Source: Desulfuromonadaceae bacterium (GTDB lineage: Bacteria; Desulfobacterota; Desulfuromonadia; Desulfuromonadales; JAHYIW01). Taken from it: 64,000 bases of DNA. Location: positions 37,964-101,963 of the forward strand of contig JAHYIW010000002.1 in the NCBI GenBank assembly GCA_019429445.1, written 5' to 3'. Each line of letters starts with the position of its first letter. Positions within the stretch are counted from its first letter, which is position 1. The position numbers and the translations under genes are program-made. Below the pieces are notes generated by a model. It worked only from the letters and a program-made list of their open reading frames with translations, searched no databases and was not told where the DNA came from. Positions 1 through 50,351 of the stretch are shown here, piece by piece.

Positions 1-123
1 CAGAACTCTTATTATCCGATTTTTTTGAAGTAAATGTCAATCTAAAATTTGTCCGTAATTCTGTCTGTTCGCTTGACGCCCTGTGTGTCGTCAGGTACTC
101 TTCGACTCAATAAGGACAGGGCT

Positions 124-405
124 ATGACGGATCATATTGCGTGGGAAGAAAAGTGCCGGCGTTGCGGTCGCTGCTGCTTTGAAAAAATTGATTTTAATGG
201 TGCAATATACTACACCAACGAACCCTGTGCCATGCTTGATCTGGATACGCGCCTCTGTACCGTTTACCGCGAGCGGCACGAGCGGCGACCGGGTTGCATG
301 GCGTTGACTCCCGAAATGTTGCAACGCGGGATCTTGCCCGCCGATTGTCCCTATGTTGCAGATATCACCGATTATCGTGCACCATATCTGTATGAACCTG
401 ATTGA
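124..405 (+). CDS. YkgJ/UPF0153-family cysteine-cluster protein
   Basis: CRRCGRCC (CxxCxxCC) motif plus further Cys residues, typical of the YkgJ zinc/iron-chelating family. ATG at 124 follows AAGGA. The track ORF starts earlier, at 49. Confidence 0.65.
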   Translation: MTDHIAWEEKCRRCGRCCFEKIDFNGAIYYTNEPCAMLDLDTRLCTVYRERHERRPGCMALTPEMLQRGILPADCPYVADITDYRAPYLYEPD

Positions 406-481
406 TTGCCAAGTTGAACGGTGCCGCACAATGCGACGATGATTCAGAACACCACAATTTGCGGTGAAGGAGAAGATTGTT

Positions 482-1909
482 ATGCAGAGGAATATCATCT
501 TTGGAACGTCGGGCTGGCGTGGTTTGCTGGCGGACGATTTTACGTTCGGTAAGGTCAGAATAGTGACTCGGGCAATTGCCGATCATCTGTTGGCCCAAGG
601 GACGGCAGATGGCGGTGTGATAGTCGGTTGTGATGCCCGATTTCTGGGCAAAAACTTCGTTGCAGCTGCGGCACAAATTCTCGCTGCCGCAGGAATAAAA
701 GCGTTTGTTTGCGACCGTGATACGCCCACCCCGGTGATTGCACATGAAATCATTCGCCGGGGATGTAGTGGTGCGATTAATTTTACAGCAAGTCACAATC
801 CGTATGAATATAACGGACTCAAATTTTCTCCCGCATCAGGTGGGCCGGCGCTTCCTGGAACGACTGCCGATATCGAGCGCCGCGCCAATGAGATGAGCGT
901 GGTGGACAATGTTGATCAAATGACCGTAGAACAGGCGCGCTCGCATGGATTGTATGAGGAGATTGACCCGCGTCCGGCTTATGTTGAGTCGATACGCAAA
1001 TTGGTCAATTTTGATGCCATTCTTTCTTCAGGGCTAATCTTTGCGATCAACCCGCTCTATGGCACCGCTATCGGTTATCTCGACAAATTACTGGGTGACG
1101 CTGGGGTGACAGTGATGACAATCAATGACCATCGTGATCCGTATTTTGGTGGCTACCCCCCGGAACCGGCGCAAGCGAACATTGCTCAATTCATTGATCT
1201 TATCCGCAACGATTCGCGTCTCAGCCTGGGACTCGCTACAGACGGAGATGCTGATCGTTACGGGATTGTTGATAGTGACGGAACTTACATTGAACCCAAC
1301 TACATTCTGGCACTGCTGGCAGATTATATGCTGAGAAGTGGACGGCGTGGCGACCTGGCGCGTTCTGTTGCGACGTCGCATCTGCTCGATCGGGTTGCTG
1401 CGCATCATGGAGTCAATATTCTTGAAACACCGGTCGGCTTCAAATTTATTGGTGAATACATCGCTGCGGGAAAAATTCTTATCGGGGGGGAAGAAAGTGC
1501 CGGTTTGACAATCAGCGGGCATGTTCCTGACAAGGATGGCATCCTTGCCTGCCTGCTGGTGGCCGAAATGGTTGCAGTTGAGCAAAAGACCATAGCCGAG
1601 TTGCTGACTGACCTTTATCGCCGGGTCGGTGAAGTACATACCCGTCGCATCAATCTGCGCCTGACACCTGAACTTGAGACTTCTTTTGCTGAGAAAATGA
1701 GTGTGACGCCAGACGAGTTTGGTGGCAAGAAGGTGTGCGAAACGAACACCGTGGATGGTTACAAGTTTATTCTCGACGATGGATCGTGGTTGTTGTTTCG
1801 CAAATCAGGGACTGAGCCGGTCGTGCGACTTTACGGAGAGGCCAACTGCGAGGAACATTTGCAGGCGATCATCGATGCGGGACGGTCATTCGTTTTGGGC
1901 CTCCCGTAG
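482..1909 (+). CDS. phosphoglucomutase/phosphomannomutase family protein
   Basis: GTSGWRG N-terminus, active-site TASHNP, DGDADR metal loop and GEESAG sugar loop. ATG at 482 has a GGAG 8 nt upstream. The track start at 464 is a GTG. Confidence 0.85.
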   Translation: MQRNIIFGTSGWRGLLADDFTFGKVRIVTRAIADHLLAQGTADGGVIVGCDARFLGKNFVAAAAQILAAAGIKAFVCDRDTPTPVIAHEIIRRGCSGAINFTASHNPYEYNGLKFSPASGGPALPGTTADIERRANEMSVVDNVDQMTVEQARSHGLYEEIDPRPAYVESIRKLVNFDAILSSGLIFAINPLYGTAIGYLDKLLGDAGVTVMTINDHRDPYFGGYPPEPAQANIAQFIDLIRNDSRLSLGLATDGDADRYGIVDSDGTYIEPNYILALLADYMLRSGRRGDLARSVATSHLLDRVAAHHGVNILETPVGFKFIGEYIAAGKILIGGEESAGLTISGHVPDKDGILACLLVAEMVAVEQKTIAELLTDLYRRVGEVHTRRINLRLTPELETSFAEKMSVTPDEFGGKKVCETNTVDGYKFILDDGSWLLFRKSGTEPVVRLYGEANCEEHLQAIIDAGRSFVLGLP

Positions 1910-1943
1910 CAGCCGCGGTTTCCTGATTAGATGTGGATAGAAT

Positions 1944-1979
1944 AAAAACGGGGATAAGCGTGCGCTCATCCCCGTTTTT
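1944..1979. terminator. bidirectional intrinsic terminator between convergent pgm-like gene and rpmB
   Basis: aaaaacggggat...atccccgttttt: 9-bp GC-rich stem flanked by an A-run and a T-run. Confidence 0.6.
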
Positions 1980-2004
1980 GATGATTTCGATCAGGATGTA
2001 ACGA

Positions 2005-2196
2005 TCAGCCTGGTTTGACAATCGCTCCGGAACGAATACAGCGTGTACACGCCCTGACGGACATGACCGTGCCATTTTTGAGAGACCGAACTTTTTGCAG
2101 ATTCGGATCCCAGGTTTTCCGGGTTTTGTTGTGTGCGTGGCTGACATTATTCCCTGTTTGCGATTTCTTTCCGCAAATATCACATACTTTTGACAT
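2005..2196 (-). CDS. rpmB: 50S ribosomal protein L28
   Basis: [34 protein letters not shown] is a canonical L28 N-terminus. Confidence 0.95.
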
Positions 2197-2296
2197 AATT
2201 AAAGCTCCTCTTGGGATTCAAAGCCGTAGATATCTATCACAATTGCACGTGTGATGCAACTCATATTTAGGAATTTATGCATCTTTTTACACGGGT

Positions 2297-2749
2297 CTAA
2301 AAGTCCAGGTCATCCTCGCTTATGACTTCGATCTGCTGCCGTTTTAGTAGTGTCGTTGTGACCCCGTCACCACTGACCACCAGATTCTCCCGGTAAATCT
2401 CCCCGACACCGCATGACGGGCTGCGTTGTTTCAGGATCGCCCGTCGGCAATCCGTCAACCTGGCGATTTTCAGCACTTCTTGTGCACCGCGTATAAATGC
2501 CAGGTTCATCGATATATCAGCGTTTGTTATCTCACCGTTACCATCGAGGACAGCGGAACCATCACCGTTGACGAACCATGATCGCAGGCGGGGGGTTGGC
2601 AAGCCGCCGAGTTGTTCGGGACAAACCGGAATCGGAGTCAGCTTGTGCTGACGCAGATAATCAAGAACCCGATGATCGGCCTTTGTGTTCCCATCGTAGC
2701 GGGTGTTCAGGCCGAGTAAGCATGCACTGACCAGAACTGATCGTTCCAT
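2297..2749 (-). CDS. DUF523 (YbbK-like) domain protein
   Basis: VLVSACLLGLNTRYDG...SPSCG pattern typical of DUF523. Its ATG overlaps the purN stop (TGATG), suggesting translational coupling. Confidence 0.7.
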   Translation of the reverse strand: MERSVLVSACLLGLNTRYDGNTKADHRVLDYLRQHKLTPIPVCPEQLGGLPTPRLRSWFVNGDGSAVLDGNGEITNADISMNLAFIRGAQEVLKIARLTDCRRAILKQRSPSCGVGEIYRENLVVSGDGVTTTLLKRQQIEVISEDDLDF

Positions 2750-3411
2750 CAGTCGTCCAGAGCCGGGTTGACCAATACCCCTGAGGCAGGCTGTGGTGCC
2801 GGATCAATGTAAACATGTCGACCGGTGACCTTGACGCGGTTTTCCGCAAATAATTGAATGACACGCGGATAAATTTTGTGTTCCTGAACAAGAATTCGCG
2901 CTGCCAGGGTGTCCTCGTTATCATCAGTGAGAACCGGTACCACAGCCTGCATGATAATCGGTCCGGTATCGACCCCACCATCGACCAGGTGGACGGTACA
3001 GCCGGAAAAGCGCACGCCGTACTCAATCGCCTTGCGCTGCACGTTAAGTCCGGGGAAAGCGGGGAGGAGTGCCGGATGAATATTAATAATGCGGTTTGGA
3101 AATGCGCTGACAAACGTCTCCGTAATAATGCGCATGAACCCGGCCAGGACAACTAATTCAACCTGCGCTGATTGTAATGCGCTGACAACGGCCCGGTCGA
3201 ATTCATCACGCGCAGAAAAGTCGCGGTGGTTGATGATTTGTACAGGAATACCCGCATTTGATGCGCGGGCGAGCGCACCAGCATCGGGGTTATTGCTGAT
3301 TACGGTGACAATTTCAGCATCAAGAGATTTGGCGACGCAGTGGTCAATAATCGATTGCAGGTTAGTGCCACCCCCTGAAGCGAGTATACCGAGACGCAGT
3401 TTTTCAGTCAT
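2749..3411 (-). CDS. purN: phosphoribosylglycinamide formyltransferase
   Basis: LGILASGGGTNLQ, NIHPALLP and later Asp motifs. Start moved to the ATG at 3411, preceded by GAGGAG. The track ORF extends to 3507 across the purM stop. Confidence 0.9.
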   Translation of the reverse strand: MTEKLRLGILASGGGTNLQSIIDHCVAKSLDAEIVTVISNNPDAGALARASNAGIPVQIINHRDFSARDEFDRAVVSALQSAQVELVVLAGFMRIITETFVSAFPNRIINIHPALLPAFPGLNVQRKAIEYGVRFSGCTVHLVDGGVDTGPIIMQAVVPVLTDDNEDTLAARILVQEHKIYPRVIQLFAENRVKVTGRHVYIDPAPQPASGVLVNPALDD

Positions 3412-3427
3412 CCGCTCCTCCCGGCCC

Positions 3428-4477
3428 TCAGCTGATAACAACTCGCGGTTCTTCGCCCTTGCGAGCAGCGATCGTGCCGATAACAGTGGCACTTTCACCC
3501 AGACCATTGAGACGCATCATGATGTCATCGGTTTCTTGTTCGGGGACAATGACGATCAGGCCGATGCCGCAGTTGAAGGTACGATACATTTCATCCTTGG
3601 CAATATTGCCTTTTTCTTGCAGAAGTTTGAAGATTGCTGCTTTGGGCCATGATGTACCATCGATTTGCGCTTTACAATCGTGAGGCAGCACACGAGGAAG
3701 ATTCTCCGGAAGTCCGCCGCCAGTAATATGCGCAATGCCCCGCAGGTTGAAATCGCGCAGCAAATTGAGTATTGACTTAACGTAAATACGTGTCGGCGCA
3801 ATCAGGACCTCACCGAGCGGAGCCTCAAGTTCCGGCAACCTGGCATCAATGGCATAGCCCTCTTGCTCAAAAAGTATCTTGCGCGCCAAAGAATAACCGT
3901 TTGAGTGCAGTCCACTTGATGCCAGACCGATGACCTTGTCACCAACCGTTATCGAAGAACCGTCGATGATGTTGCTGTTGTCGACAACCCCCACAGTAAA
4001 CCCGGCCAGATCGTATTCTCCAGTGTTGTACATGCCGGGCATTTCCGCAGTTTCCCCGCCGAGCAGGGCGCAGCCAGCCTGTTTGCACCCCTCAACAATC
4101 CCCTTGACGATCTCAACGGCCTTTTCCGGGGACAATTGTCCGGTCGCAAGATAATCAAGGAAAAACAGGGGTTCGGCGCCCTGAACAATAATATCGTTGA
4201 CACACATGGCGACCAGATCAATGCCGACCGTATCATGTTTATCAAGCATAAAGGCGATCTTGAGCTTGGTGCCGACACCATCGGTTGAAGCAACCAGAGT
4301 CGGGCGCGCATATTTGTCAGGTGTCAGTGAAAAGAGGCCGCCGAACCCGCCAATGTCTGCCAGAACCTCAGGACGCGAACACGATTTAACCAGAGGTTTG
4401 ATCATCTGCACAAAACGATTTCCGGCATCGATATCGACACCGGCATCTTTATACGTTGTTGGTTTTTTTTGAGTCAC
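3428..4477 (-). CDS. purM: phosphoribosylformylglycinamidine cyclo-ligase (AIR synthetase)
   Basis: TYKDAGVDIDAGN, DGVGTK and GGETAEMPG motifs. GTG at 4477 lies 7 nt downstream of AGGAG. Confidence 0.9.
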   Translation of the reverse strand: MTQKKPTTYKDAGVDIDAGNRFVQMIKPLVKSCSRPEVLADIGGFGGLFSLTPDKYARPTLVASTDGVGTKLKIAFMLDKHDTVGIDLVAMCVNDIIVQGAEPLFFLDYLATGQLSPEKAVEIVKGIVEGCKQAGCALLGGETAEMPGMYNTGEYDLAGFTVGVVDNSNIIDGSSITVGDKVIGLASSGLHSNGYSLARKILFEQEGYAIDARLPELEAPLGEVLIAPTRIYVKSILNLLRDFNLRGIAHITGGGLPENLPRVLPHDCKAQIDGTSWPKAAIFKLLQEKGNIAKDEMYRTFNCGIGLIVIVPEQETDDIMMRLNGLGESATVIGTIAARKGEEPRVVIS

Positions 4478-4594
4478 GTTATTGCTCCTTTTCCCCGAAC
4501 ACAAGCGACCAAAGGTAATTTATCAATCGGGCGATGTCAAGGTAAACTCTTTGCGCTCAGGCGTTTTCGGAAACAGTTTTGAAAATCAAAGATG

Positions 4595-4740
4595 ATGCAC
4601 TCGCAAAAAAGAATTGGATGGCTAAACAAAAATTTCGTCCTCCAAGGCTTGGTGGTTTTTCAGGGGCGAAGGCCTACATCAGGTAGGTCGAGGTCTTGAA
4701 AAACCAGCGTAACGCCGTAGGGCGGACTTTTTGCGACGCC
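4595..4740. mobile_element. MITE-like hairpin element bracketed by a 10-bp direct repeat
   Basis: ATCAAAGATG occurs at 4585-4594 and 4741-4750. Inside are subterminal inverted cores tcgcaaaaag (4601-4610) / ctttttgcga (4727-4736) and an inner inverted pair ggtttttcagg / cttgaaaaacc. No ORF. Confidence 0.4.
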
Positions 4741-4862
4741 ATCAAAGATGGCTCAAATATCACCGACAGGCGCAGCCTTGCAGAGACCCAGAATACACCA
4801 CGGTTGCAGACGAGATGAACGCCCCATTATTTGGTGGAAGTGCCCTGACCATCGAGCTGCAA

Positions 4863-5354
4863 TCAGGATGAAAGACCGAATTTTTTTTTCAAAGCTGCAA
4901 CCACCGGCTGAGGAACAAATGCGCTGATATCTCCACCGAGGGAACAGACTTCCTTGACAATCGAAGAGCTCAAGAAGCTGTAGGGGACCGCAGTCATCAT
5001 GAAGAGGGTTTCAACGCGTTGTTCGACGTTGTGATTCATTTGCGCGATCTGTAGCTCGTACTCAAAGTCGGAGACCGCGCGCAAACCGCGCAGAATGACA
5101 CGCGCCCCCTGATTAACGACATAGTTGACCAGCAGACCGTCAAAGGTCTCGGTGCGCACCCGCGAATCATCGGCAACGGCAATACGAATCAACTCCAGAC
5201 GTTCAGCGACGGTGAAGAGTGAATTTTTTTCAGAATTACGCGCCACGGCAATGATCACCTCGTCAAAGACTTCCAGACCGCGTTGAATAATGTCAAGATG
5301 ACCATTGGTGATCGGATCGAACGATCCGGGATAAACGGCAATACTTTTTTTCAT
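4863..5354 (-). CDS. coaD: phosphopantetheine adenylyltransferase
   Basis: AVYPGSFDPITNGHLDII (T/HxGH nucleotidyltransferase motif), full-length 163 aa. Confidence 0.95.
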   Translation of the reverse strand: MKKSIAVYPGSFDPITNGHLDIIQRGLEVFDEVIIAVARNSEKNSLFTVAERLELIRIAVADDSRVRTETFDGLLVNYVVNQGARVILRGLRAVSDFEYELQIAQMNHNVEQRVETLFMMTAVPYSFLSSSIVKEVCSLGGDISAFVPQPVVAALKKKFGLSS

Positions 5355-5407
5355 TCGTGTGCCTCCATGGCAGTCTCGCTAATGGTGATTTTAAAAACCC
5401 TAGTTTG

Positions 5408-7012
5408 CTAATCTGCTAACTCGCTAAAGATATAATTAGAGCTGCCACTCACCTGAGGGTTCTGCTCTCTCCCATATTGCCGACGAGCCATGTAGGACAC
5501 TTCCAAGTCCAAGTAACGCTTTAGTTCAGCCAAGCTGACTTTGTTGTCAGCATTGCCTGACTTACCTTTATCAGCATCACCATTTATGCCTTTAAGGAAA
5601 TAGCTCGTGAACAGTCCATGTTTAGCTTCTGTGTCCCATGAAGCGACTTCACCGACATTGGTTGCTGTCAGGACATTTATCTTACTCGATGTCTTGGGCA
5701 TTGATATTGGTTTTAAAGATATGGATGACGCATTGCGAATAATTGTTCCTGCCTGGGAACTTCCAGAGAAGCATGCGTCCAGGACAACTGTAATGCTCTT
5801 TGCTGACAGCTTTTCTAGATTGGCGTATAAGGTGTCAATTGAGTAGCCATTGAGTTCTACCGTTGAAGGGTCTGCATTTACAGGCAGTAAGTATCCACTA
5901 CCATCTTTAAGGCTTGGTGCTCCGTGACCAGAGTAGTAGAAAAATACATCTGATTCGTTGGGTCGAACCCAGTTAAAGAGTTTTCCCATGTGAGATTCTT
6001 TGTTTCCAAGTGCAGATACCATTTGCGCCTGAGATGCGTTCTCAAGATAGAGAATATTGCCTTCCTTGTAGCCCTTAGCATTTACCAGATATTCTTTAAT
6101 CGCTGCTGCATCATTGATTGCGTAATCGACATCTGGCACTGAGTTTCCAGATTTAGAGTAGTCTTTGTTGCCTACAATCAGGGCTATAGAGGAGTCATTG
6201 TTAAAATTTTTGCTATTGAAGTTACTGTCTATTAATTTTTGAGCATAAAAATTTGGTTTCAGTTCTTGAATATTTTCTAGGCTGTATTTTTTCAATAAAG
6301 ACATGGCTTTCGCGGCATCTCTTTTTACGTTAGGGTGAGGATCATCAAATGCAGCATTTTGGATTAAGCTATAGATATCTTCTGTTACATATTTAGATCG
6401 CGAAAGGAGCTGAAAAACATGCCTTCTTCTGTTGGCTTTGCTCTGAGTAATCTCTGTAATAATGCCTGTTGAGGCACGTTCAATCACCTCACTGTGCAGG
6501 CTACGGTTGTTGACAAGGTATATTGAAAAGGAGGTTTTTATCAAATAGTCCATATTTTTAGACATTATTTTTGCGTAATTTATTAAGTCATCCGTGTAAT
6601 AGTCGTGATCAATTAGAGATGAAATTATCAGTGCAACGATATTTCTGTGCTTCTCCTCTTTCACATGGTCGGCAAGGAACTTTACAGCGTTTTCGTGTGG
6701 TGAATTAGCTAATAATTTTGCAATTTTAGCTCTTTCCCGATCTTGTGTCTCTTGGGGAAGAAGAAGCCCCAAACGCTCTATTAATTCATTATCTTCAAGA
6801 GAAAAAGGGTTGTTAATTGCCGTGCCAATCGCTTTTGAGAAGTGCCTATTTTTAGTGTCAAAAATAATCTTTTTTAGTACATCATTGCCAGCTTGTGTAT
6901 AAAGTTGGCTCTCTTTGGTGAGGCCATATTCCTCATACCAAGCACTACCAAAGAATCCACAGCAGAACATAAACACGAGCAGGCAAAATAGCAGGGATAA
7001 TAAGCGATTCAT
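5408..7012 (-). CDS. exported HEAT-repeat protein with C-terminal caspase-fold (peptidase C14) domain
   Basis: N-terminal hydrophobic signal/anchor (LLSLLFCLLVFMFCCGFFGS). HEAT-like helices (SPHENAVKFLADHV; DDPHPNVKRDAAKAMSLL). C14 His and Cys contexts FFYYSGHGAP and VVLDACFSGSS. AT-rich relative to neighbours. Confidence 0.8.
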   Translation of the reverse strand: MNRLLSLLFCLLVFMFCCGFFGSAWYEEYGLTKESQLYTQAGNDVLKKIIFDTKNRHFSKAIGTAINNPFSLEDNELIERLGLLLPQETQDRERAKIAKLLANSPHENAVKFLADHVKEEKHRNIVALIISSLIDHDYYTDDLINYAKIMSKNMDYLIKTSFSIYLVNNRSLHSEVIERASTGIITEITQSKANRRRHVFQLLSRSKYVTEDIYSLIQNAAFDDPHPNVKRDAAKAMSLLKKYSLENIQELKPNFYAQKLIDSNFNSKNFNNDSSIALIVGNKDYSKSGNSVPDVDYAINDAAAIKEYLVNAKGYKEGNILYLENASQAQMVSALGNKESHMGKLFNWVRPNESDVFFYYSGHGAPSLKDGSGYLLPVNADPSTVELNGYSIDTLYANLEKLSAKSITVVLDACFSGSSQAGTIIRNASSISLKPISMPKTSSKINVLTATNVGEVASWDTEAKHGLFTSYFLKGINGDADKGKSGNADNKVSLAELKRYLDLEVSYMARRQYGREQNPQVSGSSNYIFSELAD

Positions 7013-7195
7013 AGCTCTCTCCTGGGTATGTATATCATCAATAAAACAGTAAAGGCATGTACGCTCAGGAGGTTTAAGAATGGTAGGTAGGCAGGACTTC
7101 AGCCCTCCTGAAGTGACATTTAGGGAAACACGATACTAAAACATCTCTCATAATGCAAGAACACCCTGATATTCTGACTTTTAAGACAATAGTAT

Positions 7196-7756
7196 TCAAT
7201 TGGAATCGACAAACAAACGAAACCGGATAGCTCCATAACGGCGGTCGTCGCACAAGGTAAAGGCGCGGTTAACGACATCCAGCTTTTCTTTTGTCCCGGT
7301 TTCAACGCAGATGATACCGTTTCTGCCCAGCAGCTGCATTGCAGCAAGCATGGCCAGGGTGGCCTCCGCCAGCCCCTTGCCGTAGGGCGGATCGAGAAAG
7401 ATCAGGTCAAAGGGCGCTTTGTTCAAAACCTGTGGCGGTAAATGCAATACATTGCTGCGCACCAGGGTCACCTTGTCGGACAAGGCACAGCCAGCCATGT
7501 TACGGGTAATCAGTTCGATCGCCTGCGGATTATTGTCGACGCAGGTGGCACTGGCGGCACCGCGACTGACGGCTTCGAGAGCCAACGCCCCGCTCCCGGC
7601 AAAAAGATCAAGAACGCGTATACCGTTCAGGGAACGGCAGCGGCTGAGCAGAATACTGAAAAGGGCTTCACGGGCGCGGTCGCCGGTGGGGCGAATCTCC
7701 TTACCGGTAAACGTTGCCAGATGTTTTCCCCGGGCGCTACCGGAAATGATGCGCAT
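7196..7756 (-). CDS. rsmD: 16S rRNA (guanine966-N2)-methyltransferase
   Basis: MRIISGSARGKHL...RPTGDRAREALF...LDLFAGSGALALEA...DPPY motifs. Start placed at the internal ATG at 7756. Confidence 0.85.
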   Translation of the reverse strand: MRIISGSARGKHLATFTGKEIRPTGDRAREALFSILLSRCRSLNGIRVLDLFAGSGALALEAVSRGAASATCVDNNPQAIELITRNMAGCALSDKVTLVRSNVLHLPPQVLNKAPFDLIFLDPPYGKGLAEATLAMLAAMQLLGRNGIICVETGTKEKLDVVNRAFTLCDDRRYGAIRFRLFVDSN

Positions 7757-7796
7757 AAATAATTCTCTTGTAATTGCGGGAGGTTGCCTGTGGATA

Positions 7797-7825
7797 AAAT
7801 TAGCACGGGGAGGAACGTTGGTCAA
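7797..7825 (-). promoter_or_regulatory. candidate sigma-70 promoter for rsmD
   Basis: On the minus strand: TTGACC, 17-nt spacer, TAATTT, about 40 nt upstream of the rsmD ATG. It directly abuts MITE copy 1. Confidence 0.35.
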
Positions 7826-7844
7826 GTAACGCAGCGCGGGACTA

Positions 7845-8005
7845 GTACCCAGTAACCCATAATCTTTCGTATCTGGCTGGTTCTTTGGCGTGTCAGCTGC
7901 GTTGCGATTTTAGCTGTTTAACTCTGGCTAGGCAGCTGAAATCACGCCTTGCTGACCCGCCAAATCCCTGCGCCATCTTTCGAAATCCTATGGGTTACAG
8001 GGTAC
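7845..8005. mobile_element. 161-bp MITE, copy 1 (TA-flanked, about 17-bp terminal inverted repeats)
   Basis: Ends gtacccagtaacccata / tatgggttacagggtac. Flanked by TA on both sides. 138/161 positions match the copy at 50191-50351 by hand alignment. The two halves are extensively self-complementary. Confidence 0.7.
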
Positions 8006-8526
8006 TACTCTTTTTGGGCAACCTGCATGCTCTCCAGCAGGGCGCGTTCTTTGCGGATCGCGCTACTGCTGTATGCCCAGATATGATAATTTTCCAGCCC
8101 CATAACGCTGGTCCCGGAAAAAAAAACGGCCCAGAAATTATCCAGAAGGGCACCGGACAGATGGTAAAAGATATAGAAAGCGCAAAAAAAAGCGGTATGC
8201 ATCCATCCAAGGAAAGGCGTAATGTTATGGCTCATTCTTGCCAAGGTTCGGACAATGCTCGAAAAGGCATATATAACCAGGGCCAAGCTGATCATGGTTG
8301 CTGGCGGGGGGGTGCCGAGGAGTTGTCGCACCTCAGTACCGAGGGCAGGGAAGATTGAAAATTCATAAAAAGCGGACAAGCTCACCAGCAGAAACAGAAC
8401 CATTGCCCAAAGACCACTTCCGGCGATTCGTTCAAGGGTCTTGATGCGTTTTTCGATGCGTTCTCGCAACTTTTCCCGATCGGGAAAGGGACGCACCTCG
8501 CGGGGGGATTCCGCCTGGCTCATCAT
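8005..8526 (-). CDS. hypothetical integral membrane protein (about 4 predicted TM segments)
   Basis: AAGGAG precedes ATGATG. Four hydrophobic stretches. Last gene of the minus-strand operon. Its TAG stop (8005-8007) is built from the last base of the MITE plus the flanking TA. Confidence 0.55.
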   Translation of the reverse strand: MMSQAESPREVRPFPDREKLRERIEKRIKTLERIAGSGLWAMVLFLLVSLSAFYEFSIFPALGTEVRQLLGTPPPATMISLALVIYAFSSIVRTLARMSHNITPFLGWMHTAFFCAFYIFYHLSGALLDNFWAVFFSGTSVMGLENYHIWAYSSSAIRKERALLESMQVAQKE

Positions 8527-8588
8527 TAGCTCCTTCTGCCCACCACAGAGTGTTCAAAACTGAACCAACTGTAACATAACGATCAGTT

Positions 8589-9434
8589 TTAGGACAGAGA
8601 ATCTGGCGAATTAACACCCTGTTCCTTGTGTAACAAACGGTGTTCGAGATCTTTTACCTTGTGAGACATTTTTTGAAAGGCATGGGCCAGCCGGGCGATA
8701 TCACCGCTTACTTCCGGAAAATCATCCTCAAGCATGCCGTTCTGGGGGGTTTCAGTAAAGTTGGTCAGTTTTTTGATTGGCAAAAAAACCTGGTTGTACA
8801 GGATGGCAAAAACAGCCCCGACAGTCAGAATCAGAACCATCCCGCTGAATATAATCATGCGGTTTTTCAGCTGTCCGAGCGTCTGTTTGAGAGGGGACTG
8901 AGAGAGGCCAATATCGATTGTTCCAAGCAGTTTCTGGTCGGCATTATGTTCGTGGCAGGACGCGTTGGAACATTCCGGTTCATTGTAGATCGGTGCGGTG
9001 ATTGCCAATACGCTGTTGCCGGCGTCATTGGTAAATTGGCGTGCTTGTGACATGGTGCCAAGACTGTGTTTCGGTTCTTCTCCGACGTGACACTCCTTGC
9101 ATCCTGCTGCTGATTTGTTGATAAACTTGTACCGTTCCCCACTTTCGCGGGTAAACATGATCAACCCCTTTTTATTGAAAATACGTAAATGTTCCACCTG
9201 TTTTTGTCCGCCGATGCTGCTGATGATGTTGCTCAAAGTATCCCGGTCATCTTTAAGCATGGCGTAGCGGGTTGATTTGATCACCGTATCGGCAAGATCA
9301 GCCGCATGCTGAATTTCACCCTCGGTCAGGTCTTCCTTGACAAAGCTGTATAAAAGCACACAGCAGGCAATGACAAATCCGGTAACAGCGCAGGCGACCG
9401 GGATGATAGCACGACTGTTTATGCTGCTGAGCAT
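8589..9434 (-). CDS. kinase-less periplasmic sensor protein (haem-motif sensor domain, TM and HAMP only)
   Basis: TM1, a periplasmic domain of about 170 aa with CKECH (CxxCH) and PECSNASCHEH, TM2, a HAMP-like segment, then a stop. The periplasmic domain is homologous to that of the kinase at 15515-17233 (NKPTCYTASCHVH). ATG at 9434 follows GGAG. Confidence 0.65.
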   Translation of the reverse strand: MLSSINSRAIIPVACAVTGFVIACCVLLYSFVKEDLTEGEIQHAADLADTVIKSTRYAMLKDDRDTLSNIISSIGGQKQVEHLRIFNKKGLIMFTRESGERYKFINKSAAGCKECHVGEEPKHSLGTMSQARQFTNDAGNSVLAITAPIYNEPECSNASCHEHNADQKLLGTIDIGLSQSPLKQTLGQLKNRMIIFSGMVLILTVGAVFAILYNQVFLPIKKLTNFTETPQNGMLEDDFPEVSGDIARLAHAFQKMSHKVKDLEHRLLHKEQGVNSPDSLS

Positions 9435-9500
9435 GATGTGACTCCTTGCGCTATTCATATGACTGCGGGACCGCAACGGGCGGTCCCGCAGTCATGCTTT

Positions 9501-10841
9501 TTAATCGATCCGGCGATACAGGGCACCCGCCGGTAAGGGAGCTGTGGTGATCGTATTTGTCTTGACTGCTTCTGCGGCAAGGGCTTCTTGCGGTTGCTCT
9601 TTCCACGCATAAAGAATTGGCAGCCGATAGAGGATAAAGCGATAGACCACAACGTAGATTGCAAAGACCGTCACGGTGATGAGCACTTCAAATACGTGAG
9701 GGATCTCCTGATAGAGTTGCCAGTTGAAAGTGATGAGTGCGGTATTTAAACGATTCAGGACAATGCCAAAGACGGTGATAAATGCTCCCAGCCGGGCCAG
9801 ACCAACCATGCGATGACGAATCGCGTAGGCGAAGAGCACAATCGGCAGGACCACGCCGAAGCCGATTTCAGCCATAAACCAGGCGCCCCAGCCGGTGGCC
9901 AGATACCCCCACTCATTATCGTGGGCAATGCCGATCAATTTGATGGCCAGGTAGGTGATCAACGCCAGACTGGCCCCTTTGGCCAGACCCAGAGTACAGC
10001 GGTCGAGATTGTCGAGAAAGTTTCTGTCACAGCGCCAGCTCATGGTTTTTCTGACGATGGTGCTGACCGCGATCACCATGCAGAGCCCCGCCGGAATCGA
10101 CGAACAGAAGAAATGAATCCATTGAAACGACGCTGAATACCAGAGTGGGTGAACCTTTCCCGGTGCGTAAGTGAACAGCGCCCCCAACGCCCCCTGGTGA
10201 AGGGTTGAGAGAATGATACCGGCGATGGTCAGTCCGATGGCAATCCGGCGCACAAAGCGTTTACCCCCCAGCCACCCGATCCATTCGAAGAAGGCGACAG
10301 ATACTTCAGCGACCTGTACCGACAGATAGGTGGCGACGTGCCAGGCGACCAGAAAGAGCACTGCGGCCGGCCCGAAAGAAACCACCATCGGGTAGGGTAA
10401 TCGCCACGGCTGACCAAGATCAACCAGCAAGTAGACGACAGCAAAAAAGTACCCCAGCAGACCGTTAAGCAGGGCCAGGCGTTCAATCGGCTCGAAATCG
10501 TGGCGACCGAAGATTTCAACGGTTGTTCCGAGCATGAATCCTGACGCAGAAAGTGGCACCATTGCAAACAGACCAAAGCCCAGAAACAAACCCCAGGGAT
10601 AGTCGTTTGATGCATGAGTGACGACGCCGAGTCCGAACAGATAACGATAGGCGATCAATGGCAGTCCGATCGCGAAGATGATCCCCAGAATCCAATTGAA
10701 CGGATTGCGTAACGCCTGCCCGAAATACTGTCCTGGGGTCAGCCCGAAAAAGAGTTTTTGTTTTAGGCTCCAGCTATGGCGAGACTCTTTGTTGATCGGT
10801 GAATCAACGAGTTTCACCCCGCATTGAATCAGACTTTTCAT
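9501..10841 (-). CDS. NrfD/PsrC-family quinone-interacting integral membrane subunit
   Basis: 446 aa, highly hydrophobic with many TM helices. Overlaps the upstream FeS-subunit gene by 4 nt, as is typical of NrfD-type complexes. Confidence 0.8.
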   Translation of the reverse strand: MKSLIQCGVKLVDSPINKESRHSWSLKQKLFFGLTPGQYFGQALRNPFNWILGIIFAIGLPLIAYRYLFGLGVVTHASNDYPWGLFLGFGLFAMVPLSASGFMLGTTVEIFGRHDFEPIERLALLNGLLGYFFAVVYLLVDLGQPWRLPYPMVVSFGPAAVLFLVAWHVATYLSVQVAEVSVAFFEWIGWLGGKRFVRRIAIGLTIAGIILSTLHQGALGALFTYAPGKVHPLWYSASFQWIHFFCSSIPAGLCMVIAVSTIVRKTMSWRCDRNFLDNLDRCTLGLAKGASLALITYLAIKLIGIAHDNEWGYLATGWGAWFMAEIGFGVVLPIVLFAYAIRHRMVGLARLGAFITVFGIVLNRLNTALITFNWQLYQEIPHVFEVLITVTVFAIYVVVYRFILYRLPILYAWKEQPQEALAAEAVKTNTITTAPLPAGALYRRID

Positions 10842-11794
10842 TGTTCATCTCCCTCGTCGCCTGGTGTTGTGTCGGCGGTTTGGTCATGCCCCTCATGGCC
10901 GTCATGTTTTTTTGCAAGGAGGTGGAAACCGGCAAACATTGCGGGCCAGATGGCGAGAACCATCGGCACGGTGCCGAGGAAATCCTTCACCTGATTGATA
11001 ATTGGATCGTTCCCCGGATTCGGGTCGAAACCCACTTCGCTAAAGGGTACCGGGGACAGATACATCCAACTGGTTCCACCCAACTCGTTTTCTCCATAGA
11101 TTCGATTCACGTAGCGGCCTGGGTGTGTCTGAATGCGGTTATTTCCGATTTTGAGTAGTTCCTTGCGCTTGCCGAAGGTTAGTGCTTCCTGCGGGCAAAT
11201 CTCGACACAGGCCGGTGGCAGGCCATTCTTCAGCCGTGTTTCGTGGCAGAAAATACACTTTTTAACGACTGGATCAAAGGCGCTGGAGTAACTGTAGCCA
11301 GGGATGTGAAACGGGCAGGCAATCATACAGTTACGGCAGCCAACACAAACTTTGGAATTATAGATGACAGCCCCTTCCTTCGTTTTGGTATAGGCATTGA
11401 CAAAACAGGAGGTGAGGCAGGCAGGCTCGCTGCAATGATTGCACTGCACTTTGCGGTAAACGGGCTGATCGCTGCTGGCAGGTTGGTAGCGATTTACAAC
11501 CGTATAGGCATTTTCATCGGGACGCCGCAACTGTTTGCCGTCATGGAAAGTTTGGTCAAACACTGATTTGTCATCAAAAGGTAACTCCGGTGCTGGCAGC
11601 TGTTGCTCCTTGTTGCAGGCTGCTTCGCAGCTGCGGCAGCCGACGCAGCGCGTCAAATCGACCAATACCCCCATGCCCTCCGGGTAGCCGGAAAATGATC
11701 CGCTTGCCAGGGCTTTTTTTGTGCCGGCCAAAGTTGTGGCGGCACATCCTGCCACACTCGCGGCAAGAAATCTTCGTCGACTGATTCCACTCAT
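10838..11794 (-). CDS. Tat-exported 4x[4Fe-4S] ferredoxin-type subunit (NrfC/HybA-like) with C-terminal TM anchor
   Basis: Twin-arginine signal SRRRFLAAS. Four Cys clusters (CVGCRSCEAAC, CNHCSEPACLTSC, CVGCRNCMIACP, CIFCH...CVEICP). C-terminal hydrophobic helix and an acidic/His tail. ATG at 11794 follows AAGGAGAG. Confidence 0.85.
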   Translation of the reverse strand: MSGISRRRFLAASVAGCAATTLAGTKKALASGSFSGYPEGMGVLVDLTRCVGCRSCEAACNKEQQLPAPELPFDDKSVFDQTFHDGKQLRRPDENAYTVVNRYQPASSDQPVYRKVQCNHCSEPACLTSCFVNAYTKTKEGAVIYNSKVCVGCRNCMIACPFHIPGYSYSSAFDPVVKKCIFCHETRLKNGLPPACVEICPQEALTFGKRKELLKIGNNRIQTHPGRYVNRIYGENELGGTSWMYLSPVPFSEVGFDPNPGNDPIINQVKDFLGTVPMVLAIWPAMFAGFHLLAKKHDGHEGHDQTADTTPGDEGDEQ

Positions 11795-11834
11795 AACGAC
11801 TCTCCTTATCCTCAAAAACATGCTTCGGTGAATG

Positions 11835-12362
11835 TCATTTCAAATCAAACAACTGTTTGACCCAATTCGTGTCAACGGGGGACGCATCCGCGTGAAACAA
11901 GGCGTCGCCGTCCGGCGTTCTGGTATGACACGTCTGACATCCCGTTGGCCCATTCATCGTTTCATGGCAACCGACGCAGTTCCAGTGATACACCGCTTTC
12001 AGGCCGGGTTTGTCGATATGAAACTGGTAGCGGGACAGGGCTTTTTGATTAAGGTGTTCCGCAGAAAATGGATCGACGACATGGCAATCACGACATGCAA
12101 CGTTAGCGACACCGTCACTGTCAGTATGGCAGCTTACGCAACGTGAGTCGGTTGTTCCTGTTCCGGTGGTATGATGATGGCAGTGCGAGCAATCTTCCCC
12201 CAACTCGGTATGCATGGCATGATCAAATTTGACGCCGGAGAAATACTTGACCATGGTATCGAGCGACACTTGTTCAGGCATGTCGCCTGCCAGACTCAGG
12301 CTACCTGTCGCGAGGATCGACACCGCCATGATCAAGGTAACTCCGAATAACTTAGCGTTCAT
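11835..12362 (-). CDS. periplasmic pentahaem c-type cytochrome
   Basis: Signal peptide plus five CxxCH motifs (CSHCH, CVSCH, CRDCH, CVGCH, CQTCH). ATG at 12362 lies 8 nt after AGGGAG. Confidence 0.85.
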   Translation of the reverse strand: MNAKLFGVTLIMAVSILATGSLSLAGDMPEQVSLDTMVKYFSGVKFDHAMHTELGEDCSHCHHHTTGTGTTDSRCVSCHTDSDGVANVACRDCHVVDPFSAEHLNQKALSRYQFHIDKPGLKAVYHWNCVGCHETMNGPTGCQTCHTRTPDGDALFHADASPVDTNWVKQLFDLK

Positions 12363-12399
12363 AATTATCACTCCCTTTACTAAAGATCGCCCAGCAACA

Positions 12400-12570
12400 C
12401 TATTTGTTGGCGTCAGCGGAATTTGAATTCAAATACTTATAGTACATCGGGAAAGCGATGAAAAATGCCACACAGATCAGGTATTCAACGCCCTTGATAT
12501 ACTGATAGTAATCGACCAAGGTGTGAACACTCTGCCACTCACCTATCGATTGAAGTACCTGTTCAATCAT
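12400..12570 (-). CDS. 56-aa hypothetical membrane mini-protein (not in ORF track)
   Basis: Read by hand: GGGAGGAAAAA-ATG, MIEQVLQSIGEWQSVHTLVDYYQYIKGVEYLICVAFFIAFPMYYKYLNSNSADANK, one TM helix. It fits the 245-nt gap between the flanking operon genes. Confidence 0.5.
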   Translation of the reverse strand: MIEQVLQSIGEWQSVHTLVDYYQYIKGVEYLICVAFFIAFPMYYKYLNSNSADANK

Positions 12571-12615
12571 TTTTTCCTCCCATAAATTCGTTACAATTAG
12601 CGGTTCCTGATCAGA

Positions 12616-12858
12616 TCAGTTTTTTTTGCCACTATATGCCGCCTGCTTTCCTTCTCCCTTGATCAGTCCCTTGATAAACCCGACCAGCAAGATGATTGTT
12701 GGCATCAGCTGCACCAGAATAATCAAGGCACAAAAGGCCAGGAAAGAACCAACCAAAATTCCGCTGGAGTAAGTCTTGGTTGTGTCCACGGCAAAGGCTG
12801 GTTCTATCATCAGTGCCAACATCGAGAGTCCCATCAGTAAACTTCTGAACTTTTTCAT
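12616..12858 (-). CDS. small exported/membrane protein, paralogue B
   Basis: MKKFRSLLMGLSMLALMIEPAFA signal, then GILVGSFLAFCALIILVQLMPTIILLVGFIKGLIKGEGK. Paralogous to 13354-13578. ATG at 12858 follows GGAGG. Confidence 0.6.
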   Translation of the reverse strand: MKKFRSLLMGLSMLALMIEPAFAVDTTKTYSSGILVGSFLAFCALIILVQLMPTIILLVGFIKGLIKGEGKQAAYSGKKN

Positions 12859-12898
12859 AACGCCTCCGTTAAGTTGTTGACTCATGTCATTATTGCAG

Positions 12899-13300
12899 TC
12901 ACACGTCTGCAGAATCGTGAGTCACTTTTTCAAACGCACATTTGACCGCCTGACGTAACTCTTCCTCATCGCCCGGACGGATCGGCTTGAGGGCGTGGTA
13001 GAAAATTCCCTCACTGCGCGCCTTGCGAATTAATGCTAAGGGGAGTTCGCTGGCAACCAGAATGATGGTCAGATTGCGGTTACACTTTTTAAGGATCGGA
13101 ATTAATTCAGTTGCCAATAATTCATCAAAGCGGGGGCTAAGCAGGACAACCTGGGCGGTTTTTTTAAGGATCCCGTAAAGAGCTCCCGCCGCTGAGTTGG
13201 GCACAGATACTTGATAACCCGCTTTGATGAATAGATCTGCCATACGTTTTCTCGACAACACGTCTTCGTCTGCGATCAGTAATCCTGGCATGTGCATCAT
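12899..13300 (-). CDS. stand-alone receiver-fold protein lacking the phospho-acceptor Asp
   Basis: The CheY-like pattern LLIADED...VVLLSPRF...IILVAS...HALKP keeps the acidic pocket and the Lys-Pro. The position normally Asp (LLD) is Ser. ATG at 13300 follows GGGAG. Confidence 0.65.
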   Translation of the reverse strand: MMHMPGLLIADEDVLSRKRMADLFIKAGYQVSVPNSAAGALYGILKKTAQVVLLSPRFDELLATELIPILKKCNRNLTIILVASELPLALIRKARSEGIFYHALKPIRPGDEEELRQAVKCAFEKVTHDSADV

Positions 13301-13353
13301 TGTTATTCTCCCACCCAAGGCCAGACGGTATTGGTTCACCCGACGTGTTGCGG

Positions 13354-13578
13354 TTAGCTCTTATTGACCGTTGTTTTTGCTTCTTTGGAGAACAATCCCC
13401 TGATCAAACCGAAAAAAAGAATCATCGCCGGAATTAATTGGGACACAACGATCAATGCAAAGAATCCAATGAAAAAATAAGTCAGAATTCCTGTTTCTCC
13501 TTCTGGTGTACCAGCTGCGGCATAAGCGGCTGAAGCTGATCCAGCCATCATCGTTGCCATCATTCTCAGTGTTTTCAT
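13354..13578 (-). CDS. small exported/membrane protein, paralogue A
   Basis: Signal-like N-terminus, then GILTYFFIGFFALIVVSQLIPAMILFFGLIRGLFSKEAK. GAAGGAGG RBS. First gene after the sigma-54-type promoter. Confidence 0.6.
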   Translation of the reverse strand: MKTLRMMATMMAGSASAAYAAAGTPEGETGILTYFFIGFFALIVVSQLIPAMILFFGLIRGLFSKEAKTTVNKS

Positions 13579-13652
13579 AACGGCCTCCTTCTCGGGTTGT
13601 TGAACATATTCCGTCGCCGGAGATTCTTGCTCCGGCTTTGAGTAAGGACTTG

Positions 13653-13668
13653 TGCAGGATTTGAACCA
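13653..13668 (-). promoter_or_regulatory. candidate sigma-54 (-24/-12) promoter
   Basis: Minus strand reads TGGTTCAAATCCTGCA. GG and GC have the canonical TGG-N9-TGC spacing. It lies about 75 nt upstream of the 13578 start and downstream of a sigma-54 activator gene. An AT-rich region with palindromes lies 150-250 bp further upstream. Confidence 0.5.
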
Positions 13669-14062
13669 AAATTTGAAAAACTTAATAAAAAGCGCAATTA
13701 GCTGTTTTTTAAGGATTTATTCAATGGTCATAAAATGGAACGCGATTCAGAAAAGATGCAGGTGTATAAATAAAATATGCGTCTGGAAGTGGCCGGTTGC
13801 CACGTTTGAGCGGGAAATGCTTATAACTTGCTGAAAATAAATACGTTTTTTTAAGCATATAAAAAATAATAAAAATATACGGTATGTATAAATATTACAT
13901 ATATGCAGGAAGGTGGGTGTCTGTGAGAAAGATTTGTGCGGCTGCTATCGATGAATGGACGGACAGCTACCGACACCGGATAGAATGTAACACAGCGCAA
14001 TATTGATGGCGTTTTACGGGGCTGGCTGCTGTCTGGCCCGGTAAAAAAGTAAAAGCGAGATA

Positions 14063-50190: not shown

Positions 50191-50351
50191 GTACCCAGTC
50201 ACCCATAATCTTTCGCATCTTGCTTGTTCTTTGCCGCGTCAGCTACGTTCCGATTTCAGCTGCTTAGCTACGGCTAGGCAACAGAAATCGCGCCTTGCTG
50301 ACACGTCAAAGCCCTGCGCAATCCCTCGAAATCCTATGGGTTGCAGGGTAC
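50191..50351. mobile_element. 161-bp MITE, copy 2 (TA-flanked)
   Basis: Ends gtacccagtcacccata / tatgggttgcagggtac, with TA on both flanks. Same length as copy 1 and about 86% identical. Ends 19 nt upstream of the M16 peptidase ATG. Confidence 0.7.

Follow-up and report, generated by a model that had tools for sequence, protein, structure and literature searches.

A predicted exported HEAT–caspase gene gained between rsmD and coaD in a Desulfuromonadaceae bacterium

How did a single gene for a caspase-like protein come to lie within the conserved gene pair rsmD–coaD of a Desulfuromonadaceae bacterium, and what might its product do there? We addressed this question in a 64,000-nucleotide (nt) stretch of DNA from a contig of a metagenome-assembled genome (MAG) of this bacterium; all 64 kb of this stretch, hereafter the window, were examined. 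A preliminary description of the window had noted, between the two genes, an AT-rich 'island' with one open reading frame (ORF), and had proposed that it is a horizontally acquired insertion encoding an exported protein with HEAT-like helices and a caspase fold. The ORF is the sole one between coaD and rsmD, and its product is 100% identical to P0001, deposited at NCBI as 'MAG: caspase family protein [Desulfuromonadaceae bacterium]'. To our knowledge, bacterial caspase homologues are abundant, almost none of them has an established substrate, and their discussion has mostly concerned cytoplasmic death or defence. Comparison with related genomes revealed that the gene is a recent gain, and analysis of its product points to a putative protease facing the periplasm.

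A scan of species-representative genomes for CoaD retrieved a locus of Desulfuromonadales bacterium C14-02 (JARGFI010000018.1, hereafter L006), in which CoaD, RsmD and PurM share 98%, 96% and 97% protein identity with those of the window. The DNA of L006 is collinear with positions 1..14348 of the window at 96.1–97.0% identity, interrupted by three breaks. The largest of these is the caspase gene, and L006 has none at the site. The L006 junction reads ...TTTGTTTGTC-A-AGACTGCCATGGAGGCACACGAATGAAAA, with the TGA of rsmD overlapping the ATG of coaD (ATGA). In the window, the two junctions read ...TTTGTTTGTC/GATTCCAATTGA...(1,831 nt)...ATTAGCG/AGACTGCC..., a slash marking each boundary; the foreign segment replaces the single A of the ancestral junction GTC-A-AGACTGCC. 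The foreign DNA thus spans 5377..7207 instead of the 5355–7195 given previously. The insertion point falls within the terminal part of rsmD, at its 3' end, 23 nt before the ATG of coaD. The last eight codons of RsmD, KTAMEAHE*, are changed to DSN*, which is supplied by 12 foreign nt (7196..7207). The catalytic domain of RsmD is intact, with Pfam Cons_hypoth95 covering profile positions 1–181 of 182. On the other side, coaD retains its native leader and Shine-Dalgarno sequence (5355..5376, 22 nt), and its ATGA overlap with rsmD is lost. Besides the caspase ORF, the segment contains only 195 nt upstream and 31 nt downstream of it, 226 nt of flanking DNA in all.

The next relatives compared at this locus, eight Desulfuromonadales (L007–L014), all possess a contiguous rsmD–coaD pair; in five (L007–L010 and L013) the two genes overlap by ATGA, and in three they are 2–13 nt apart. 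Across a wider set, rsmD lies immediately 5' of coaD in 65 of the 80 retrieved coaD loci, and a caspase homologue is found at none of the 80. Given that exact restoration of the overlap by deletion in all these lineages is not credible, a gain in the lineage of the window is the only reasonable reading. It is thus strongly supported that the lineage of the window acquired 1,831 nt of foreign, low-GC DNA with a single complete gene after its split from the ~96%-identical lineage. The proposal of a horizontal insertion into a conserved gene pair is upheld by the empty site of L006, by the contiguous pair in L007–L014, which was the comparison of close relatives that the preliminary description had suggested, and by the 65 of 80 loci.

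The word 'island' describes the segment in part. It suits the atypical composition and the absence from a close relative, but not the content: one gene and 226 nt, with no integrase, tRNA, terminal repeats or target duplication. Among the hallmarks of classical genomic islands, the segment displays the composition and the empty site, and neither an integrase or transposase, a tRNA or att target, nor flanking repeats. In its atypical GC and codon usage and its empty site in a near-conspecific genome, it resembles the small strain-specific genomic islets found in conserved operons. Unlike these, it is devoid of an integrase, tRNA target, flanking direct repeats and insertion sequence element; moreover, its single gene interrupts an overlapping, translationally coupled pair and rewrites the C-terminus of the upstream gene product.

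The composition of the gene is also distinct. With a G+C fraction (GC) of 0.401, against 0.528 for the window, the caspase ORF is lower in GC than any other 1.6-kb stretch of the 64 kb, and its N-terminal half (0.367) is lower than its C-terminal half (0.435). Both flanking spacers are AT-rich as well (0.40 for the upstream 7013..7195 and 0.45 for the downstream 5355..5407). The low GC of the gene, lowest in its N-terminal half, and of both spacers is as first described; the value of around 55% given for the neighbouring genes holds for rsmD (0.55) but is slightly high for coaD (0.50). GC and codon-usage deviation, in line with the check proposed with that description, were computed for the caspase ORF and 56 other long, non-overlapping ORFs of the window. 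Among these 57 ORFs, the caspase ORF is the most deviant (rank 1) on every measure: GC (0.40 against an ORF average of 0.54, z = -4.1), GC at third codon positions (GC3; 0.393 against a mean of 0.600, z = -3.7) and the codon-usage log-likelihood, which measures the fit to host synonymous usage (z = -3.7). The compositional deviation is real and far beyond chance. The protein is rich in Lys, Asn, Ile and Ser, and recoding it with host codons yields an expected GC of 0.470; thus, about half of the GC deficit is attributable to amino-acid composition and about half to codon choice.

We assigned the C-terminal domain of the protein to peptidase family C14 (clan CD) on the basis of the Pfam score (Peptidase_C14, residues 275–524, E 1.7e-17, 64.3 bits against a cut-off of 21.4), the SGHG/DxCxSG dyad, and a fold that places this dyad at strand ends. 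The intact His and Cys contexts reported previously are present as YYSGHG (His363) and DACFSG (Cys414), and both residues are invariant in all 65 homologues of a family alignment. In an AlphaFold2 (AF2) model built on this alignment, with a mean predicted local distance difference test score (pLDDT) of 78.9, the C14 domain (residues 270–534) has a pLDDT above 90; His363 is located near the C-terminal end of strand E355–366, and Cys414 is the last residue of strand E406–414. A Foldseek search against the PDB retrieved the MALT1 paracaspase (3v4o_A, E 1.4e-9, target-normalised template modelling (TM) score 0.70) and the fungal metacaspases Yca1 and CgMca1 (TM 0.55). A PDB sequence search with the single protein gave marginal metacaspase matches only (E ~1e-3). 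Pfam, the AF2 strand positions and Foldseek thus agree on the C14 fold and on the placement of the dyad, for which a structure prediction had been called for.

Three acidic residues of the domain are highly conserved, namely D301 (65/65), D412 (63/65), which lies two residues before Cys414, and D460 (61/65). Their positions match by motif what we take to be the acidic S1 pocket of metacaspases and MALT1, from which cleavage after Arg or Lys would be expected; on this analogy, the protein is probably an Arg/Lys-specific endopeptidase. Following Cys414, there is a basic loop, G422-x3-[RK]426-N-A-S-S-I-S-L-[KR]434, in which [RK]426 and [KR]434 are each found in 56 of the 65 homologues. The loop is highly conserved, yet AF2 confidence is low there (residues 419–430). 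A loop that is conserved yet flexible is a candidate for autoprocessing or regulation, and it is likely to serve as such a site, as judged from the alignment and the model. Compared with MALT1, Yca1 and CgMca1, the domain shares the same caspase/hemoglobinase fold (Foldseek E 1e-9 to 1e-7), as well as conserved acidic residues consistent with Arg/Lys at P1, among them the Asp that precedes the catalytic Cys by two positions. However, the identity is 13–22%, no death, Ig or prodomain modules are present, and the protein is predicted to be extracytoplasmic rather than cytosolic. Neither does it have the Pro-rich or zinc-finger N-terminal prodomain (type I) or the long p20–p10 linker (type II) of eukaryote-type metacaspases (types I–III): Pfam detected no such domains, and the N-terminus is made up of a signal and HEAT-related helices.

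The N-terminus reads MNRLLSLLFCLLVFMFCCGFFGSA/WY, in which a basic n-region precedes a hydrophobic core of ~19 residues. The Kyte-Doolittle maximum is 3.10 at residues 7–18, and G-S-A fits the -3/-1 rule as a heuristic. A 534-residue ORF with a signal or anchor N-terminus, as the preliminary description had it, is therefore confirmed. An equivalent hydrophobic segment opens 61 of the 65 aligned relatives, and the four without it look like N-terminally truncated fragments. These export signals imply that the whole C14 clade is exported; we infer that the clade as a whole is extracytoplasmic, as predicted from its sequences. Directly after the signal, 33 of the 65 homologues carry the motif W[YF]xxYG[IL]; each of these 33 is HEAT-bearing, and W25 and Y29 are invariant in alignment A2.

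In the AF2 model, residues 25–251 are all helical (helices H34–251), with a pLDDT of 82–96 at residues 180–245. The family profile matched the alphaRep designed HEAT proteins with an E of 5.7e-32 and is dominated by HEAT/alphaRep matches. Aligned by hhalign against the N-termini of canonical HEAT-caspases, the sub-group of the window gave a probability of 99.1% (E 1.1e-18). The two ends of the region match, one through the signal, the WY motif and the first repeat, the other through the last two repeats; in between, ~90 residues (~97–184) have no counterpart in the compact HEAT form. Foldseek with the N-terminal region against the PDB retrieved weak ARM/HEAT/TOG matches (E 2e-3 to 9e-3). Profile homology and the alpha-solenoid both place the region with HEAT repeats of the PBS-lyase/alphaRep type, and its Pfam HEAT/HEAT_2 scores stay below threshold. 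The 'about 200 aa of HEAT-like helices' noted previously are thus right in kind at the profile level, but this member is degenerate and sub-threshold in Pfam.

A census of the 120 best database matches found a Pfam HEAT-type domain together with Peptidase_C14 in 31, mostly from Desulfuromonas and from Desulfuromonadales genomes and metagenomes. In other best matches, the same caspase domain is joined to SH3_3, Sel1/TPR, FGE-sulfatase, PG_binding or MORN modules. HEAT_2 N-terminal to Peptidase_C14 has been catalogued as the rare 'Type V' orthocaspase architecture of cyanobacteria (PMC8283722); a NACHT-HEAT_PBS-metacaspase is listed in PMC3501461, according to which many bacterial metacaspases begin with a helix that is possibly a signal peptide. 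A literature search found no paper characterising an exported HEAT-caspase. The earlier view that this architecture could be tied to nothing described is therefore too broad, given that HEAT–C14 proteins have been catalogued (PMC8283722, PMC3501461) and this very protein is held by NCBI; it stands insofar as no member has a described function. The protein adds one more member to a kind that has been catalogued but not studied.

With orthocaspases and other bacterial metacaspases (PMC8283722, PMC3501461, PMC5756287), it shares the p20-type C14 domain with its His/Cys dyad, protein-interaction repeats in the same polypeptide, the HEAT region preceding the protease, an N-terminal hydrophobic helix, and a scattered distribution that has been put down to horizontal transfer. 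It differs from the cyanobacterial orthocaspases in its Desulfuromonadales lineage, its clear export signal, the W[YF]xxYG[IL] motif that opens the mature chain, and a degenerate HEAT region of which the ~90-residue middle lacks a counterpart in the compact form. The cyanobacterial HEAT orthocaspases have not been reported as exported, and one is NACHT-linked.

The genes around the homologues are mostly unrelated housekeeping genes, and never rsmD and coaD, which agrees with stand-alone, mobile genes. The survey of these neighbourhoods, also suggested with the preliminary description, revealed two recurrent contexts. One is a cluster in which a canonical HEAT-caspase is accompanied by a ~722-residue DUF4384 lipoprotein, a ~215-residue lipoprotein and a 537–602-residue protein of unknown family. 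It occurs in Desulfuromonas carbonis (L087 6001..13413/L088) and in a distant deltaproteobacterial MAG (L092/L093), and between these genomes the identity of the three partners is 43%, 58% and 37%. A FecR protein and a CHASE2 cyclase adjoin the cluster in L087 only. Members of the 537–602-residue family are also found near C14 genes in three further metagenomic loci (L151–L153). As separate observations on this cluster, the fold of the ~215-residue lipoprotein recurs at the N-terminus of the DUF4384 protein (~30% identity), and a DDE transposase gene lies just upstream of it in L087.

The other context emerged from a HMMER search with the N-terminal module over 1.84 billion representatives, which gave exactly one match, P0121 (E 1e-26, 30% identity over residues 18–245, the divergent middle included). 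In P0121, the WY motif and the HEAT-related region follow a lipoprotein-like signal, and the chain ends in a glycine-zipper segment, not a caspase. In its operon (L174/L175), this WY-HEAT glycine-zipper lipoprotein is encoded together with an LpoB-family lipoprotein (206 residues; PF13036, and TIGR02722 at 57 bits, below cut-off), a TPR lipoprotein (417 residues) and an exported stand-alone C14 protein (310 residues), which is 35% identical to the C14 domain of the window. The HEAT region and the caspase are thus fused in one genome and encoded by separate genes of one operon in another, which suggests, on the Rosetta-stone principle, that they work together, in the company of envelope lipoproteins.

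Modules have also been exchanged on the caspase side. P0002 has a caspase half that shares 80% protein and 73% DNA identity with that of the window, joined to an unrelated N-terminal region, which indicates module shuffling. Four tandem Peptidase_C14 paralogues (459, 521, 449 and 635 residues) lie on one strand at 279..7908 of L089. The three nearest homologues with flanking DNA (L001, L005 and L086) are found in unrelated contexts, 0.10–0.14 below the GC of the contigs that carry them; the canonical HEAT-caspases and the L174 operon, on the other hand, are host-like (-0.03 to +0.02). Low GC as a trait of the whole family was therefore rejected: it is confined to the closest sub-clade of the window, and the anomaly thus marks a recently mobile sub-clade and not the family. 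A mosaic origin of the gene, considered for the GC step between its two halves, was likewise rejected, since L001, L005 and L086 show the same gradient.

Table 1. Positions of the segment, of its gene and protein features, of the two flanking genes and of the related split operon
Feature	Position	Strand	Remarks and basis
Foreign segment, 1,831 nt	5377..7207	.	alignment breaks at 7208 and 5376 (blastn, L006 against the window); junctions read base by base
Caspase-like ORF	5408..7012	-	534 aa; signal peptide, WYxxYG motif, HEAT-related helical region, C14 caspase domain
Shine-Dalgarno AGGAGAG	7017..7023	-	4 nt 5' of the ATG at 7012..7010; direct sequence reading
Predicted Sec-type signal peptide or signal anchor, aa 1-24	6941..7012	-	cleavage after G-S-A24; heuristic
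WYEEYGL, aa 25-31, matching W[YF]xxYG[IL]; opens the mature protein	6920..6940	-	homologue alignment
Helical region related to PBS-lyase-type HEAT repeats, aa 32-251	6260..6919	-	AF2, hhalign, family profile
Low-complexity Asn/Ser/Lys linker, aa 252-274, predicted disordered	6191..6259	-	pLDDT 39-68
Peptidase_C14 (caspase/hemoglobinase fold), aa 275-534	5411..6190	-	Pfam, AF2, Foldseek
His363 (YYSGHG)	5924..5926		
Cys414 (DACFSG)	5771..5773		
coaD (pantetheine-phosphate adenylyltransferase)	4863..5354	-	TIGR01510, 195.8 bits against a cut-off of 103.3
rsmD (16S rRNA m2G966 methyltransferase)	7196..7825	-	TIGR00095, 148.2 bits against a cut-off of 117.5
Tight four-gene operon	L174 5001..9042		headed by the P0121 gene; same arrangement in L175

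These results enable us to propose a putative account of the gene and its product, which we consider moderately probable as a whole. Foreign DNA of 1,831 nt was inserted into the 3' end of rsmD, destroying the ATGA overlap and recoding the tail of RsmD. Upon Sec export, the protein would act on the periplasmic face of the inner membrane as a free or an anchored enzyme. There, its HEAT solenoid would dock a protein partner or substrate, and the C14 domain would cut substrates after Arg or Lys. The product of the recently inserted gene would thus be an accessory, periplasm-facing Arg/Lys endopeptidase with a HEAT docking module, its role lying in envelope-directed proteolysis and not in cytoplasmic programmed cell death.

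Several points weigh against this account. The activity, localisation and expression of the family members are predictions, and the signal cleavage and S1 specificity come from heuristics and a motif analogy with metacaspases and MALT1. The middle of the HEAT region is poorly modelled, with a pLDDT of 43–63 at residues 70–180 (low confidence over residues ~60–180), and Pfam HEAT_2 reaches 20.7 bits on the caspase protein, against a threshold of 27.7, at residues 196–241 only. The operon link consists of one cluster in two assemblies. By tblastn, the DUF4384, 215-residue, 537–602-residue, FecR, LpoB-like and TPR partners are all absent from the 64-kb window. The search for a donor found none: a whole-protein metagenome scan reached at most 41% identity; the best relative overall, P0002, matches at 80% over the caspase half only and lies on a 1.8-kb contig in an unrelated context.

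A bolder reading, which we regard as rather unlikely at present, takes the protein as the fused form of a modular extracytoplasmic envelope caspase system, in which the HEAT region would recruit the caspase to an outer-membrane- or peptidoglycan-associated complex. Cleavage may then control envelope remodelling, signalling or regulated lysis. If true, there would be a caspase pathway that acts outside the cytoplasm, and into which a single horizontally moved gene can plug. Independently of this, the link by fusion and splitting between the HEAT module, the exported caspase and envelope lipoproteins suggests where substrates might be sought. The locus itself offers a single-gene gain that can be dated, with the empty site as a control; it shows that such genes move as naked cassettes and that a caspase gene can be tolerated inside an overlapping housekeeping operon. 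Even should none of the functional reading hold, this is an ordinary accessory gene acquired by horizontal transfer.

The gene might instead have been ancestral at this site and deleted in L006 and other relatives, a reading that gains something from the empty site being known from one near-conspecific genome, L006. Against this, rsmD and coaD are contiguous in all nine relatives compared (64–98% CoaD identity) and share the 4-nt ATGA overlap in six, and a deletion would have to restore exactly both the overlap and the RsmD tail; besides, the gene stands out from the rest of the window in composition and codon usage, and its homologues never occupy the rsmD–coaD locus. We therefore regard ancestry followed by loss as close to refuted. 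It is also conceivable that the locus is a chimera of MAG assembly, or that the gene is an unexpressed or decaying passenger, considering that the source is a MAG, that the exact protein is known from a single contig, and that the 195 nt upstream contain no sigma-70-like promoter. A chimera is difficult to reconcile with two clean junctions in one operon and collinear flanks of 96–97% identity on both sides. As for a passenger, the full-length ORF follows a strong Shine-Dalgarno sequence and has lost none of the residues that are invariant in the family, and its position inside a housekeeping operon with no terminator before coaD leads one to expect read-through. Both forms of this reading are poorly supported, and we consider them very unlikely.

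Two further alternatives accept the gain and assign the protein another role. Sec- or type II-secreted toxins with repeat regions and C-terminal caspase-like toxin domains have been described (Zhang et al. 2012, PMC3482391), and the protein might be such an antagonistic 'Tox-Caspase' polymorphic toxin, in which a constant N-terminal trafficking and repeat module carries a swappable C-terminal toxin against competitors or predators. Like these toxins and exported clan CD peptidases, it combines a signal peptide, repeats and a C-terminal caspase-like domain, and both halves have been shuffled, the caspase carrying another N-terminus in P0002 and the N-terminal module a glycine zipper in P0121; the four tandem paralogues of L089 and the recent horizontal acquisition fit as well. 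However, the caspase stop codon is followed by 31 nt of foreign DNA and then by native coaD, leaving no immunity-gene candidate; there are no secretion-system or toxin-cassette genes nearby; the N-terminal modules of the relatives are ~30% identical instead of forming near-identical constant regions; and the neighbours of the homologues encode lipoproteins and sensors, not immunity proteins. In view of the missing immunity gene, a toxin is unlikely. An anti-phage or abortive-infection caspase, of the gasdermin-activating or CHAT/Craspase type, would suit an accessory, horizontally moved gene, and the generic PADLOC 'caspase' model PDLC02987 matches the protein (E 1.3e-11). Only this generic model is matched, with neither a system-specific PADLOC model nor partner genes, and the weak match to the NCBIfam EACC1-associated caspase model (NF047832), at 67.6 bits, is far below its cut-off of 140. 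No sensor, gasdermin, NACHT/STAND, CRISPR or EACC1 partner is present in the insert or its flanks (rsmD, coaD and purM), and no phage record encodes a relative. The defence caspases described so far act in the cytoplasm, as opposed to the export signal carried by 61 of the 65 family members. Given the predicted export and the lack of partner genes, we hold a role in anti-phage defence to be very improbable.

The insert bears no trace of its vehicle. At 5377 and 7207, a search for terminal repeats, inverted or direct, and for a target duplication found none. An Rfam search over 4400..8200 at E up to 1 gave no family, and hence no tRNA or other RNA target. The insert DNA has no match in the plasmid and phage DNA collections, and a search of phage records with the caspase protein found no relative; relatives of the caspase domain are carried by 20 plasmids, 10 of which are conjugative or mobilizable. 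Since the ends bear no hallmarks of a transposon, integrase or attachment site, entry was probably by illegitimate recombination, or by recombination of a variant allele. Regarding expression, scans for a sigma-70-like promoter in the 195-nt upstream spacer and for a terminator between the caspase stop codon and coaD found neither. With no such signals detected in the insert, the gene would be transcribed within the rsmD–coaD operon, and it is probably expressed by read-through, as predicted from the sequence.

Two other inserts relative to L006 lie close by and look like small mobile elements, with terminal inverted repeats and short flanking duplications. One, of 146 nt, is located between coaD and purM (4595..4740). 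A 10-bp direct duplication (CATCTTTGAT) flanks it, its terminal inverted repeats (GCGTCGCAAAAA / GCACTCGCAAAAAA) are imperfect, and a terminator-like hairpin (4705..4717) lies within it, just 3' of coaD; there is one copy in the window. The other is a 159-nt element resembling a miniature inverted-repeat transposable element (7845..8003), between rsmD and an upstream ORF of 173 residues. Absent from L006, where the empty site reads GAGTAG/TCC, it has 16-bp terminal inverted repeats, TACCC(T/A)GTAACCCATA, and TAG flanks, and a second copy with 85.5% identity is found at 50191..50349. The region is clearly open to insertions, and the caspase gene arrived by a different, unmarked route.

Two minor features of the window were also recorded. 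A second low-GC stretch lies at 13000..14000 (0.43 over 1 kb, with a minimum of 0.337 at 13651..13950); it is collinear in L006 as well and is thus not a recent gain. Upstream of the rsmD region, a 295-residue ORF (8589..9476) has a distant paralogue at 16409..17155, ~8 kb away on the same strand, with 25% identity over 253 residues.

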